Assembly: GCA_964016885.1 (NCBI GenBank)
Contig: OZ024754.1
Location: 8,122,001 to 8,186,000 of the forward strand
Direction: 5' to 3'
From: Eledone cirrhosa
Lineage: Eukaryota
DNA length: 64,000 nt
Each line of letters opens with the position of its first letter. The first letter of the stretch is position 1. The notes beneath the pieces are model-generated. The model did not search any database, was not told where the DNA came from, and saw only the letters and a list, made by a program, of their open reading frames with translations. This document shows, in pieces, positions 14,146 to 41,710 of the stretch. Position numbers and translations under genes: made by a program.

Positions 14146-14150
<5 letters not shown>

Positions 14151-14302
14151 ATCAAAAGATAGTTAAAAGAGTTCCATGTATTTTATTATGCGCATTTCAA
14201 AAATAAATATCCTCATGGGATGATATTTGCGTTCTCCTCAGATAAAATAGGGAGACATGATATAAAATACATGGAACTCTTTTAACCATCTTTTGATCTT
14301 AT
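14146..14302. repeat. Inverted repeat (about 41-bp arms) enclosing a hammerhead motif
   Basis: ataagatcaaaagatagttaaaagagttccatgtattttat / ataaaatacatggaactcttttaaccatcttttgatcttat. Confidence 0.9.
14179..14249 (-). ncRNA. Minimal type I hammerhead ribozyme with intact core
   Basis: Minus: tattttat CTGAGGA [stem II aaatatc/gatattt] GAAA tgcgca TA ataaaata; perfect 8-bp stem I, palindromic stem III. Confidence 0.8.
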
Positions 14303-14498
14303 ATTATTTATACTCCAGTCATATAAACTGTGGAGTGCTTATTATCCGATATCTGCATTGCTTTATTGTGCTTCAATAAAACTCACACCTACACATATAT
14401 ATAGTATGAGATGAGGAGAGAGAGAGAGGAGAGATGAGAGAGGAGAGAGAGGGGGAAAGAGAGAGACTGGGGGGAAAAGAGAGAGTTAGAGGAGTAAG

Positions 14499-14698
14499 NN
14501 NNNNNNNNNNNNNNNNNNNNNNNNNNNNNNNNNNNNNNNNNNNNNNNNNNNNNNNNNNNNNNNNNNNNNNNNNNNNNNNNNNNNNNNNNNNNNNNNNNNN
14601 NNNNNNNNNNNNNNNNNNNNNNNNNNNNNNNNNNNNNNNNNNNNNNNNNNNNNNNNNNNNNNNNNNNNNNNNNNNNNNNNNNNNNNNNNNNNNNNNNN
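14499..14698. other. Assembly gap (200 N)
   Basis: Run of N. Confidence 1.
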
Positions 14699-14986
14699 AA
14701 GCATGAAAGTACTTGTTCAATTAACACTTAACATTTAATATTCTACCATACTATTTCATTCTAATACCATTATAATTTTAAAGGATTGTAAATAAAACGA
14801 GTAAATCAGACAAAGTTGGAATTCCTTTTATTAATATATATATATATATATATATGCAAAAGTTTTATTTAAGATTGTTGGGTTACAACGAGTAAATATT
14901 TTATAACTGATATAAAAGCACTCGACAGTTTCTGGAGTAGGTTTACGATATTAAACAAATGGAAACTATATTTATAAAACCATATT

Positions 14987-15052
14987 TATTTCGTTATATA
15001 TATTTCTGGGATATCATATTAAAAATATGTTATGCCTTCCTCAGACAAAATA
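14987..15052 (-). ncRNA. Hammerhead motif (left palindrome arm)
   Basis: Reverse complement of 15195-15260. Confidence 0.7.
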
Positions 15053-15194
15053 CAATACATAAGCTGTTTTATAAATAATTAGTGACATACCTTTTGAGAA
15101 TGCAACTTCCTTTTAAAAAAGTCAACTTTTTTAAAAGGAAGTTGCATTCTCAAAAGGTATGTCACTAATTATTTATAAAACAGCTTATGTATTG

Positions 15195-15260
15195 TATTTT
15201 GTCTGAGGAAGGCATAACATATTTTTAATATGATATCCCAGAAATATATATAACGAAATA
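15195..15260 (+). ncRNA. Minimal type I hammerhead motif (right palindrome arm)
   Basis: tattttgt CTGAGGA a[gg..catatt-ttt-aatatg..cc]a GAAA tatata TA acgaaata. Confidence 0.7.
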
Positions 15261-15300
15261 AATATGGTTTTATAAATATAGTTTCCATTTGTTTAATATC

Positions 15301-15369
<69 letters not shown>

Positions 15370-15463: not shown

Positions 15464-15572
15464 TACTCTGATGTGTTGACCAGAGGTAAATAATGTATTG
15501 GAGATCGAATGACGCAACCTCAGGCGATTAGCGAACTCTAGACTCACCTGATCAACGAAACAATTGTCAGTA
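15464..15572 (+). ncRNA. Type I hammerhead motif with long stem II
   Basis: tact CTGATGT gttgaccag...ctgatcaac GAAA caattg TC agta; A9 changed to U. Confidence 0.65.
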
Positions 15573-15638
15573 TTTTATATAAAGCCCCTTATTGTACAGC
15601 CAACCATGTTACTCTTCATTCTTTAACTATATATATAT

Positions 15639-15732
15639 TATATTGAATATTTACTCCATTAACTGTTGAGTGCTCTATATCAGTTATAAACTTTTAAGTT
15701 TGTTGGAATCCCAACAAATTAAATATAACTTC

Positions 15733-15774
<42 letters not shown>

Positions 15775-16101
15775 GAAGTTATATTTAATTTGTTGGGATT
15801 CCAACAAACTTAAAAGTTTATAACTGATATAGAGCACTCAACAGTTACTGGAGTAAATATTCAATATATTAATAAATGGGAAACTATATTTATAAAACAT
15901 TAATTATTTTAATTATATATTTCATCATACTATCCAGCGAATTTTCAACCGTCAAGGTTGTTTTCCATGGTTATGTCACTATTTATAAAACAAATTTTGT
16001 ATTTTATCTGATGAAAGCGCACCAAGATTGGCTTGGTCGCCCTTGAAATATATATAATTAAAATAATTATGGTTTTATAAATATAGTTTTCCATTTATTA
16101 A
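15639..16101. repeat. Two adjacent inverted repeats of the same family as 14900-15303
   Basis: Arms 15640-15737 and 15771-15867 around (TA)n; arms about 15869-15925 and 16044-16101. Confidence 0.85.
16000..16065 (+). ncRNA. Type I hammerhead motif with canonical core
   Basis: tattttat CTGATGA aagcgcaccaag-attgg-cttggtcgccctt GAAA tatata TA attaaaata. Confidence 0.75.
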
Positions 16102-16136
16102 CATATTGTATATATATATATATTATTATTATTATT

Positions 16137-32250: not shown

Positions 32251-32387
32251 CTCTCTCTATATATATATATATGTCTCTACTTTTAGAATACTATGGAATA
32301 CTGTTAGCTTCTTGCTACAATACTTTCTATACCTTTAATATATATATATATAACGGCTTGAGCTCAGCCGTCGGGGTCTTACTGGTT

Positions 32388-32420
<33 letters not shown>

Positions 32421-32424
<4 letters not shown>

Positions 32425-32620
32425 CGAAGGAAATGTGGTAAGGAACCAGGTGGACCATAACGCACCAAAGTACTCAATACTTAGGGTAGTAGAGTGGGTA
32501 ATAGGAACGAGTAGGACCCCGACGGCTGAGCTCAAGCCGTTTCGACGGCTAATTCTGGACTCAAAGTCCAGAATTTGCCGTCGAAACGGCTTGAGCTCAG
32601 CCGTTGGGGTTCTACTCGTT

Positions 32621-32625
<5 letters not shown>
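32421..32625. mobile_element. pLTR-like short element ending in a palindrome (32501-32625)
   Basis: Same family at 32352-32391, 40534-40693 and 46659-46845; each flanked by (TA)n. Confidence 0.8.
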
Positions 32626-34865: not shown

Positions 34866-36010
34866 AATATAATTGTCAGGCAAGGTTGGACCTTTCAAGT
34901 ACTGCTACTATCCATCCGATGGGCTTCCACACAGTTTCTGTCTACCCTATTTCACTCACAAGATCTGGGTCGATATGCGCGTGACTATAGTAAAGAGACT
35001 TGCTCAAGAAGTCGACCCATGTACTTCATGATTGCGAAGCGAATTTCTTAACCACTCTGCCATATCCCTATACCTTAATTGTCTTAATAGAACATCTAGT
35101 GTGACTGTGAGTTCTTCACACATCCACAGATGCAAAACCTGAGGCACATCATCAGTGTTGCATTCTGGAGTCACAGAGTGTATCGGCTCTTACAACATAC
35201 GCCCTCATCCAGGTGACCCAATCGAGGTTGAACAACCCTCAACCTGTGTCCAAGTAGCACACATACTACTGGTCCTACTGGTCACTTTTCTTCAGCCTTA
35301 GCCATCTAGATGCCTTTTCTGCCCATTTCACCTTATTTGTTATACCTCTACTCCTGCTTGCTCTCTGTAATACTTTCCTCGTTGTACATGTACGGAGTTT
35401 GATAATTTATTTTATCATTCAGTCAAGACGAAAGGGGCAATGAGTTTAACATTTTCAGGGCCTATGAGACAAGTAGGAAGTGGAGAGAAGATTATCCCCC
35501 AAATTGGAAGCCATGTTAGAATGTTTGCAACAAAAGTAACTGCGCTAAATGCACCTAAGAACAAACTAGTGCTGTTAAACCGTTTGTCGATTAAGCTACC
35601 ACATAAGTTGGCCACAGTCGGGTTATTACGCAAAGAACCGAAACAAATTACACACCGTCGATGTTTTAGCTATTCTGCCATTCCATCACCCTAGACAAGT
35701 ACTTTCTACCCCCACAAGGATGAAAGGTAAAGTCGACTTTAATGGGGTTTTTGAACTCAGGGCGCATAACGTTGGAATAAATGCCGCAAATCATTATATC
35801 CAACGTTCTAATGACTCTTTCAGTTCCCCACCTATGATTATTACAGTGAACCGCTAAAAATGTGGACTAACCACCGCAAGGCAGTATTGTTCTGAGTCAC
35901 CATTCGTTACCTTCTGATTTCAAATCGCACAGAAGTTAACTGCCTTTTACGGCCGATAAAAATAAACATATTACCACTCTAGTACTGGGGTTCATTTCTC
36001 TTCTGTATCT

Positions 36011-36154
36011 CTGAGTTCAAATCCCGCCGAAGTTAACTTTGCCTTTCATCCTTACGGGGTCGATAAAATAAAGTACCAGTAATGCACTGGGGTCAGTTTA
36101 GTCGACTTTCTCCTTCCCTTAAAATTGCTGGCCTTGTGCCAAATGTAGAAATAA
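36011..36154 (+). mobile_element. SINE copy (long-tail variant, 5'-truncated)
   Basis: Consensus match. Confidence 0.85.
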
Positions 36155-36768
36155 TTATATTATAACCACTGCGCTCGATCAAATCATTGTAAATTAAGAT
36201 CTGGAGACGGAAACTACGTGGATGACCGTTAAAGAAAATTTTCTGTTTTAAGCGTCGCACGCCACCTGGTGGTGTTTGGGTGTATCTAGAAGTGTCTACT
36301 CCGTTGCAAGCATTTAAACATAGGTCCAATTTGAAAGCATCTTGATAACTTGATATATTGATTCACACTGCAGTAACCATATGTTGTGATTTCGTCTTCA
36401 CATTACTTCTTCCCCTCCCACCAATCTCAGAGACCCTGATAAAAAGGGGTCATGGCTGCTGTCCCTTCCTCTTCTGATTAAAATGTGTCGTCGTTTTGGG
36501 GGGTTTTTTTAAGTACTACAATTGATTAAATCATAAGCCCACCCACAAACATATTGCTTTAGGCCTCCTGCCAAAAATAGATATCTATATTAAGAATTTA
36601 TTTATACAGAACGAAGGCCATGTGCTGCAGTGCACTGTTGTATTACAACCTATGTAAGAAGTGGACAGGTTCAATGCTAGCGCAGGAAACCACTCTTTGT
36701 TTTACTATAAATTACTTGTTTTAAAGTGTTTATATTTATCTAAAAATTTACCATCATATATTTATATA

Positions 36769-37160
36769 AATGTTTCTGCTTTTGGCACCAGGCCAGCTAT
36801 TATCCCAGTGCATTACTGGTACTTTATTTTATCGAACCCGTAAGGATGAAAGGCAAAGTTAACCTCGGCGGGATTTGAACTCAGACCATAAAGGGCCGTA
36901 ACTCTTTGCTCAAAGCATGGCGTCCGACCCTCTACTGATACTACCAATCCACCACACTTCATCATATATTTATATAATTGTTTCTACTTTAGGCACAAGG
37001 CCAGCAATTACCCAGTGCATTACTGGTTCTTTATTTTATCGACCACGTAAGGATGAAAGGCAAAGTCAACCTCGACGGTATTTGAACTCAGATCGTAAAG
37101 GGACGTAACTATGCTGGAAAGCATGGCGTCCGACCCTCTACCGATACTGCCAATCCACCA
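36769..37160 (-). mobile_element. Two tandem full-length SINE copies
   Basis: catcatatatttatataa occurs before, between and after the two copies. Confidence 0.9.
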
Positions 37161-38875: not shown

Positions 38876-39572
38876 CTCCAGTATCCCCCCCAACACCACC
38901 ATCAGTCCAAAATCAATATTATTCAACACCACCGCCATAAAAGTGAATGTTCTGAAATATAAGAATTTCTTTTCCTTCTTTCAGTTGTTTTTTTCTTTGG
39001 AGTTTTGGATGCTTTTTTTTGTTTAGTTTTTTCAAAAAAGATAAAACTGATATTTGTCAAGTAAATTAAAATAGATTACATATTCCAGCACACACACACA
39101 CACACACGTACACACACACACACACACACATATATATACGTATACACACATACGTATACACACACACACAGAGGAACGATGGGGGTATCACAAGAGTTTA
39201 ATGTGTAATACATATATGTGTGTGTGTATATATATAAATCTATACAAACACACACACATGTGTGTATGCGTGTGTGTGTGTCTGTGTGTGTGTATCGGGT
39301 TCTCTAAATGTTTTTTTCAAAGAATCCCCATTCTTTAAATCCTTCGGCCAATGACCTCCTCCCATCCCACTAGAAAACGTATAAATACCACCATATCACA
39401 ATGACAGTTGGCTTTCCTGGTGATTTCCTTCGAATGAAACAGTTCTAGTCCTGTAGAAGCCATTTCTATATTATATATATATAAACTATAATAAAGTAAG
39501 GAGCGCGGGACTGTGTACGGTTTATAATTTGTTATCCCATTAGTAAAATAAGTTGGATTACTTTGAATAAAT

Positions 39573-40507: not shown

Positions 40508-40689
40508 GAAGGGTAGTTTTTCTGCTAGTTTATATAACGAAGGAGGTGTGGTAAGGAACCAGATGTACCATAACACACCAGAGTACTCAATACTCAGGGT
40601 AGTAGAGTGGGTAATAGGAAAATGTTTACCCCGACGATAGAAATAGCCGTCGAAACGGCTCGAGCTCTGCCGTCGGGGTTAAACATTTT

Positions 40690-40735
<46 letters not shown>

Positions 40736-41178: not shown

Positions 41179-41710
41179 CATACATACATACATACATACA
41201 TACATGATGGCTGCCCCCTCGTTATCGAGTATGGCTATTGCCCGAAAAGAAAAAAAAAGAACACAGATATATACTAATAATTAACGGTGCTGTGATCGAA
41301 TGTGGCATTTAGCCCAGCCAATGATCTAAAATGTCTTGCACAGAGTTGGCATCCAAAACATTCACTGGCAGTAGCCGGTTGTGGTTGGACTTCATGTATT
41401 TTTGCATGTCGCTTGAGGCCTCCTGCTGATCTACATTCTCTACCACATGCTTGGCAGGTATGATGAGTAGCATCTCCAACAGCAGCCTGGTAGTCAACCA
41501 CTGGTCTCACTTTATAACTACGAAGATGATTTTTGAGTCTAGCTTTGCTGAGGCAGAGTTTTAAACAGACGTTGCATGTCAGCGCCATAGGAGGACCTTC
41601 GCTGTCTGGAAATATAACAGCAATGCCTTTCCTGACATCCCTTTTTTACTTTTTCGTATGCGATTCAAGATGCTTCAATAGCAACTTTCCTGTCATGTAC
41701 ATTCTTTCTC
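41179..41710 (-). mobile_element. 5'-truncated RTE-like LINE 3' end with C2H2-like zinc fingers
   Basis: ORF 41274-41588: CNVCLKLCLSKARLKNH, CQACGRECRSAGGLKRHAKIH, CQLCARHFRSLAGL; followed by the same 3' tail and (TGTA)n. Confidence 0.75.

Follow-up and report, generated by a model that had tools for sequence, protein, structure and literature searches.

The DNA analysed here, a 64,000-nt stretch to which we refer as the window, comes from Eledone cirrhosa (GCA_964016885.1, contig OZ024754.1, 8,122,001-8,186,000 of the forward strand). Among its features is a stub of about 250 bases which, in the window sequence, consists of two head-to-head 3' end pieces flanked by (TA)n (Table 1). When the stub was examined for a target-site duplication, both flanks proved to be (TA)n. 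The two pieces form an inverted repeat of 41 nt, in which 14146-14186 pair with 14302-14262 at 40 of 41 positions, the sole mismatch being 14161/14287; the longest exact run is 25 nt, compared with a maximum of 14 in 100 shuffles. The pairing ends abruptly, and the next five inward positions (14187-14191) all mismatch their partners. Beyond the right arm, the one-sided tail carries a motif common to the tails at 14870-14943 and 15639-15868 and to those of a second family, family B, discussed below. This tail is native to the element, as a single contig record (record 12 of set X2) covers 14262-14386 and loose ends lie behind 14312 and 14386. In the surroundings, an assembly gap of 200 N occupies 14499-14698, about 100 nt to the right of the stub, and a related pair of MITE-like, TA-flanked hairpins with CAGGGTGTCC-like termini lies at 14032-14110 and at about 46359-46458; these hairpins may resemble Tc1/mariner elements.

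Table 1. Layout of the stub, its family B counterpart, and the inner arm ends of the nine head-to-head inversions in the census (given relative to the predicted or presumed cut)
Feature	Positions	Strand	Basis or remark
(TA)n run, left flank, likely insertion target	14111-14145		sequence; reads end in (TA)n before 14144
Left arm, hammerhead 3' product side (+1 to +41), ending at the element's short 3' end	14146-14186	-	sequence
Minimal type I hammerhead core	14187-14241	-	predicted cut between 14187 and 14186
Stem I, 5' strand	14242-14259	-	8 bp proximal, 6-nt bulge, 4 bp distal
End of native sequence in the left copy (-74 to -77)	14260-14263	-	reads; AT at 14262-14263 is the 2-nt overlap at the junction
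Right arm, first base at +1 to +3 relative to the predicted cut	14262-14302	+	sequence and reads
Tail of 92 nt, a native 3' extension on one side only, reaching the long 3' end	14303-14394	+	contigs; (TA)n from 14395
Second example, family B	40541-40693		minus arm tail-bearing, 4-9 nt past GUC; plus arm short: GAAA, stem III, GUC
Inner arm end at +1/+3	14146		
Inner arm end at -4	40612		
Inner arm end at -7	15862		
Inner arm end at -24	46478		
Inner arm end at -29	8089		
Inner arm end at about -32	45871		
Inner arm end at -36	46659		
Inner arm end at -41	32501		
Inner arm end at -128	14944		

Between the two arms, the minus strand reads as a hammerhead ribozyme. CUGAGGA (14241-14235) is followed by an unpaired base (14234), a long stem II (14233-14199), GAAA (14198-14195), the palindromic stem III AUGCGCAU (14195-14188) and UA (14188-14187), and stem I is formed by 14242-14249 with 14186-14179 (8/8 proximal pairs) and by 14256-14259 with 14178-14175 (four distal pairs). 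The motif is that of a minimal type I hammerhead of the kind found in Penelope-like retroelements (PLEs), with CUGANGA, GAAA and UH in type I order and stem I closing the cut. Because UA ends at 14187 and stem I is closed, the cut is predicted between 14187 and 14186, which makes 14262 the first base of the 3' product. The first-pass annotation had placed the predicted cut, and the beginning of the inverted copy, at just these positions; both stand, the start of the copy being refined below to +1 to +3. Stem III is a perfect 8-nt palindrome (duplex -10.5 kcal/mol) that could serve for folding as a dimer, and such perfect octamers are present in all six hexamer-loop cores that were checked. Together with the conservation of the core across the family, this suggests that the ribozymes have been under selection. 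In this copy, 12 of the 15 stem II pairs tested form, and two of the broken pairs are due to substitutions private to it. The predicted catalytic fold is not favoured in a monomer (+0.6 versus -13.1 kcal/mol). The metazoan PLE minimal hammerheads described in PMC4209133 share with this motif the type I order, the long helix II, the unpaired base 5' of stem II, the small palindromic helix III and the predicted activity as dimers; in contrast to them, stem I is longer here (8+4 bp) and hammerhead position 10.1-11.1 is A-U, not G-C.

A strict core scan of the window returned six cores, two of them perfect, versus 0, 0, 0, 2 and 0 (none perfect) in five shuffles. With Rfam, Hammerhead_1 (RF00163) was the top match on the isolated segment 14165-14263, at 18.4 bits (E 0.025), which is below the gathering score of 34. 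It was not among the matches listed for 14140-14400, no hammerhead appeared in the 150 of 212 matches listed for the whole window (nearly all of them microsatellite-driven miRNA matches), and 39395-39480 and 3030-3110 gave no hammerhead match. Degenerate cores with one core mismatch each and a palindromic stem III, but without an inverted partner, occur at 2804-2864 (-), 4847-4907 (+) and 15468-15568 (+). In metagenome scans the family motif had 0 matches; the only locus that matched the general minimal-hammerhead pattern (L001) is without an arm-like inverted repeat and has a poor stem I, and we discarded it as a chance match.

The family to which the stub belongs was followed in three contig sets and one set of RAD reads, searched with 14140-14395 at 80% likeness; these are 4 of the 23 runs listed, X1 and X2 being one sample, and runs X5-X20, with their small word shares, were left out. 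The segment is recovered in 2601, 2542 and 250 contigs and in 4636 reads, as expected of a high-copy family. Among the 40 of 89 variants listed, N7 (14237) varies freely and some variants fall on the unpaired 14234, while the other core bases and 14187-14198 show none. The substitutions at 14204 and 14212, both of which break stem II pairs, are private to this copy, the family being otherwise uniform at 99.8% and 99.9% in X1. Recurrent 3' ends of family members fall at (TA)n, ahead of 14144 and of 14154 as well as behind 14312 and behind 14386; in both X1 and X2 the number of contigs that share such an end is 26-35. Relative to the cut, the 3' ends of the element lie at about +33, +43, +51 and +133, each time at (TA)n. 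The element thus has a hammerhead shortly upstream of at least two 3' ends and an AT-rich, microsatellite target, and the stub has the inverted 5'-truncated copy and the one-sided 3' tail of a PLE insertion. Since no RT or GIY-YIG open reading frame was found (no Pfam match to either in the 30 of 80 window frames scanned, none in the stub, and a single low-complexity frame flagged by a motif scan of the window), the assignment is based on the RNA motif and the architecture. On these grounds the two pieces are likely the 3' ends of an abundant Penelope-like family. Elsewhere in the window, a frame at 41277-41645 (-) has Pfam matches to C2H2 zinc fingers (E 3e-06 to 0.004) and may be what is left of a zinc-finger gene, or one of its exons.

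The stub itself (14146-14394) is a dead copy, without an open reading frame, with broken stem II pairs and with a stem I that is predicted to be sequestered. In the full hairpin, the predicted arm-to-arm pairing has a probability of 0.89-1.0, versus 0.0 for the native stem I, and the folding model predicts that the inverted arm in a read-through transcript would sequester stem I.

Native family sequence runs on behind 14263 in 18, 23 and 5 contigs and in 595 reads, which makes the right arm a genuine inversion rather than stem I simply extending further in the native element. As the AT at 14262-14263 fits both sides of the junction, the start of the arm relative to the predicted cut lies between +1 and +3. 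Such overlaps are common here: 18 of the 71 offsets tested give at least 2 nt with this left end. The left copy spans the predicted cut and so was not templated by cut RNA. The tail sits on the truncated arm, an arrangement that a simple snap-back would not produce. In independent data, none of the 24 pieces listed, out of 5434, crosses the junction between 14261 and 14262 by more than 2 nt, in runs which, although they cover the locus best, contain only 0.33-0.35 of its words. Three RAD reads (2 starts) carry a joint from 14263 to 14262, the letters between not being known. An opposite-strand joint of 14187 and 14262, present in 89 reads, reflects native read-through, as produced by the layout of the reference, and has no value as evidence. 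Contig joints that skip from 14198 to 14264, 14198 to 14266, 14193 to 14267, 14192 to 14287 and 14198 to 14342 were left out, their sides being 23-27 nt long and their intervening letters not known.

We could then ask how often an arm starts at the cut, using the nine head-to-head inversions of the window for which a cut can be assigned (Table 1); for five of them (40612, 32501, 46659, 46478 and 45871) the core is partial and the position of the cut is presumed from it. Arm start and cut coincide in one of the nine (one of the four with an intact core), and read-through is found in the other eight (three of the four). With breakpoints uniform over 60-160 nt, the chance of at least one match to the cut is P 0.16-0.37, and for one match among the four asymmetric inversions alone it is P 0.07-0.17. 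The truncated arm is also the tail-bearing arm in three of these four, and its stops, at +1/+3, -4 and -7, all lie within 10 nt of the cut, an arrangement with a post hoc P of 0.0086. Five of the nine inversions are near-perfect palindromes centred on short self-complementary sequences. The first-pass annotation had proposed that a self-cleaved RNA end set the boundary of the retrocopy, and that randomly spread breakpoints would speak against this. At 14146 the geometry fits the proposal; however, a cleaved 3' product cannot template arms that read through, and with eight of nine arms passing through the cut, at distances from -4 to -128, such a spread is largely what the window contains.

An arm ending in (TA)n opposite a tail-bearing arm is seen at 14146 and in seven more inversions; 2995-3143, where the TA run is short and was seen by eye, makes a ninth pair for arm ends. 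The same locus has the shared tail motif 71 nt from its arm start, as in the hammerhead families. We considered it as a fourth cut-aligned arm, with the tail motif at +71, and excluded it, since it is without a hammerhead core and its spacer appears by eye to be a decayed palindrome. Left out of the census, for want of an assignable cut, was 45449-45852. It is one of three near-perfect palindromes, with 45871-46001 and 46478-46576, two of which are centred on CTTC-T-GAAG overlapping a CTGAAGA box; the sequence of these centres suggests fold-back at a built-in mini-hairpin. The locus at 14944-15303 is a near-perfect 360-bp palindrome (99.4%) with intact head-to-head hammerheads at 15044 (-) and 15203 (+), its centre 128 nt upstream of the cut and its tail on the left arm only. 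At 15636-16110, a head-to-head inversion of the asymmetric kind, which has an intact core at 16008 and a tail arm that stops at -7, is fused to a tail-to-tail palindrome round (TA)n (15636-15871). A further hammerhead family, whose stem III is longer and monomer-like, is represented at 8089-8191, where the inverted arm begins in stem II at -29, and at 39400-39475, where an uninverted copy at 39417 has one core change. Other repeats of the window include a 72-bp tandem array at 50029-50444, with a short local inversion near 50173-50236, and another abundant interspersed repeat at 36010-36885 and 49365-49819, with inverted copies whose arms of 30-80 nt lie several hundred bases apart.

Family B (32352-32625, 40541-40693 and 46659-46845) has GAAA, a 5-bp stem III and GUC, without CUGANGA. 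Its copy at 40612-40693 had been put forward as a second case in which the inverted arm begins near a predicted cleavage site. This holds only in part: the arm runs past GUC, by 4 nt on exact identity or by 9 nt if two substitutions are allowed, and no CTGANGA (CUGANGA) lies within 400 nt. In the sibling copies the fold lies 36 and 41 nt upstream, at a near-identical centre that is perhaps the loop in a long stem II of the native element. We do not count 40612 as independent support for the cleavage idea.

How, then, did the stub arise? Its architecture is already known for PLEs, whose insertions are described as including inverted 5'-truncated copies, one-sided tails and a bias for (TA)n (PMC8557442; PMC3846280). 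Endonuclease-bearing PLEs (Penelope/Poseidon, Neptune and Nematis), as presented in these two papers, share with the stub the head-to-head inverted 5'-truncated copy, the one-sided tail, the hammerhead near the 3' end, the microsatellite target and the palindromes or microhomology at the junction; unlike them, the stub has no open reading frame, and its tail measures about 92 nt compared with 30-40 bp. Opposite-strand hammerhead pairs 100-700 bp apart have also been noted before (PMC4209133). The Poseidon element of Anolis carolinensis (PAc) likewise has two 3' ends downstream of its hammerhead and an AT-rich target, and in vitro both strands are cut and extended (PMC11167929), so that two cDNAs would be allowed. 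According to the same report, uncut RNA is the main substrate in vitro and cleavage is dispensable for insertion; cleavage did occur with the protein, and RNA-seq gave no reads with an end at the cut. Non-LTR retrozymes (bioRxiv 10.64898/2026.07.22.740005) are similar in being non-coding, PLE-related and equipped with a type I hammerhead, but they are described as head-to-tail tandem units whereas the stub is head-to-head; with a single core and no tandem copy in the window, we did not retain this identity.

We infer one insertion in which two cDNAs were joined by microhomology, by analogy with L1 twin priming. A single insertion of a hammerhead-bearing Penelope-like retroelement would leave a head-to-head pair between (TA)n runs if two cDNAs were primed at the short and the long 3' start sites. 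The short-end cDNA would have read through an uncut ribozyme to -75/-77, a step that is directly visible in that the sequence spans the site; the long-end cDNA would have stopped at +1 to +3, by drop-off of the reverse transcriptase in or near the folded ribozyme, and the two would have been joined at the 2-nt AT overlap. In L1 twin priming, two cDNAs are joined at short microhomology to give an inversion; the stub differs in that the same segment is duplicated, which needs two repeat copies or two RNAs.

What ended the long-end cDNA is the point on which the explanations divide. We consider the match between arm start and cut more likely a coincidence than proof of ribozyme cutting, and we give roughly 55% to the reading in which the stop came from drop-off or chance and not from a cleaved RNA end. 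Pausing at a folded ribozyme would also give a stop near the core. Against this reading, the stop hits the cut precisely, apart from the 2-nt ambiguity; the joining step made no use of the 12-bp stem I complement next to it, which is how a fixed run-off end would behave; and it is the tail-bearing arm that is truncated, in all three cases close to the cut (a post hoc observation). In a second explanation, less probable to us but still a real contender, the template of the long-end cDNA was a 3' product of self-cleavage, synthesis ran off its end at +1, and AT served to join this cDNA to another from an uncut copy. The arm start at +1 to +3 and a junction that avoids the stronger stem I homology speak for it, and the conserved core with its free N7, as well as the six palindromic stem III octamers, suggests selection for dimer cleavage. 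The extra 4 nt at 40612 (GACG) and 7 nt at 15862 (a TA repeat) could be microhomology with the partner arm, in which case three of three tail-arm stops would be compatible with the cut; a PLE hammerhead is reported to cleave with the element's protein present (PMC11167929), and the three RAD reads with the 14263-to-14262 joint agree as well. However, eight of the nine arms as written pass through the cut, no non-native end at the cut is found among 24 of 198 loose ends listed, and the table of piled-up ends is empty. Furthermore, about 1431/about 1537 RAD reads over 14266-14274, though perhaps from few loci, continue natively through the cut, the catalytic fold is unfavoured in a monomer, and metazoan minimal hammerheads are reported to cleave poorly in vitro (PMC4209133).

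The stub could also have been trimmed later, by an asymmetric central deletion between AT dinucleotides of a long perfect palindrome of the 14944-15303 type, so that the start at +1 to +3 would be due to chance. The five near-perfect palindromes of the window, the possibility of deriving 40612 from a 46659-type palindrome by central deletion at a shared AGA, and the microhomology deletions reported in Penelope copies (PMC3846280) speak for this route, but it needs a second event that happens to land on the cut, with a homology of only 2 nt, and we hold it to be improbable. Far less credible is a snap-back of the cDNA through the 8-nt stem I complement, which the first-pass annotation had named as a competing source of the junction. 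The octamer ATAAAATA is indeed found twice, at 14242-14249 and 14262-14269, but a switch would leave one copy and here both are kept, with 12 native bases between them and an overlap of 2 nt at the join; nor would a snap-back have any way to give the copied arm a tail. The TA flanks, and the MITE-like hairpins that adjoin at 14032-14110, might suggest a TA-flanked DNA transposon with 41-bp terminal inverted repeats. We find this the least credible of all, as contigs of the family carry native sequence beyond 14263 and also beyond 14302, into the tail, no arm-to-arm span occurs among the listed pieces and the interior holds a conserved hammerhead core; nor was a repeated unit found with fixed terminal inverted repeats at its borders, the reads extending past both the inner and the outer arm ends.

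What the hammerhead does in endonuclease-bearing PLEs is unclear according to PMC8557442, and in the open-licence literature we found no PLE inversion junctions mapped to the ribozyme cut. Arm starts that peak at the cut across a genome would give indirect evidence of cleavage in vivo. The locus at 14146 alone does not supply such evidence, being one exact case versus eight counter-cases, and a sharper test would separate the tail-bearing arms from the short ones. It is tempting to speculate that the long-end, tail-bearing cDNA is often made on ribozyme-cut RNA and stops at the cut, with the short-end cDNA reading through an uncut copy, although we regard this as rather unlikely and put it forward tentatively. 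If it were true, asymmetric head-to-head stubs would preserve, throughout the genome, a fossil record of in vivo cleavage by the hammerhead, and the PLE ribozyme would have a role in shaping insertions.
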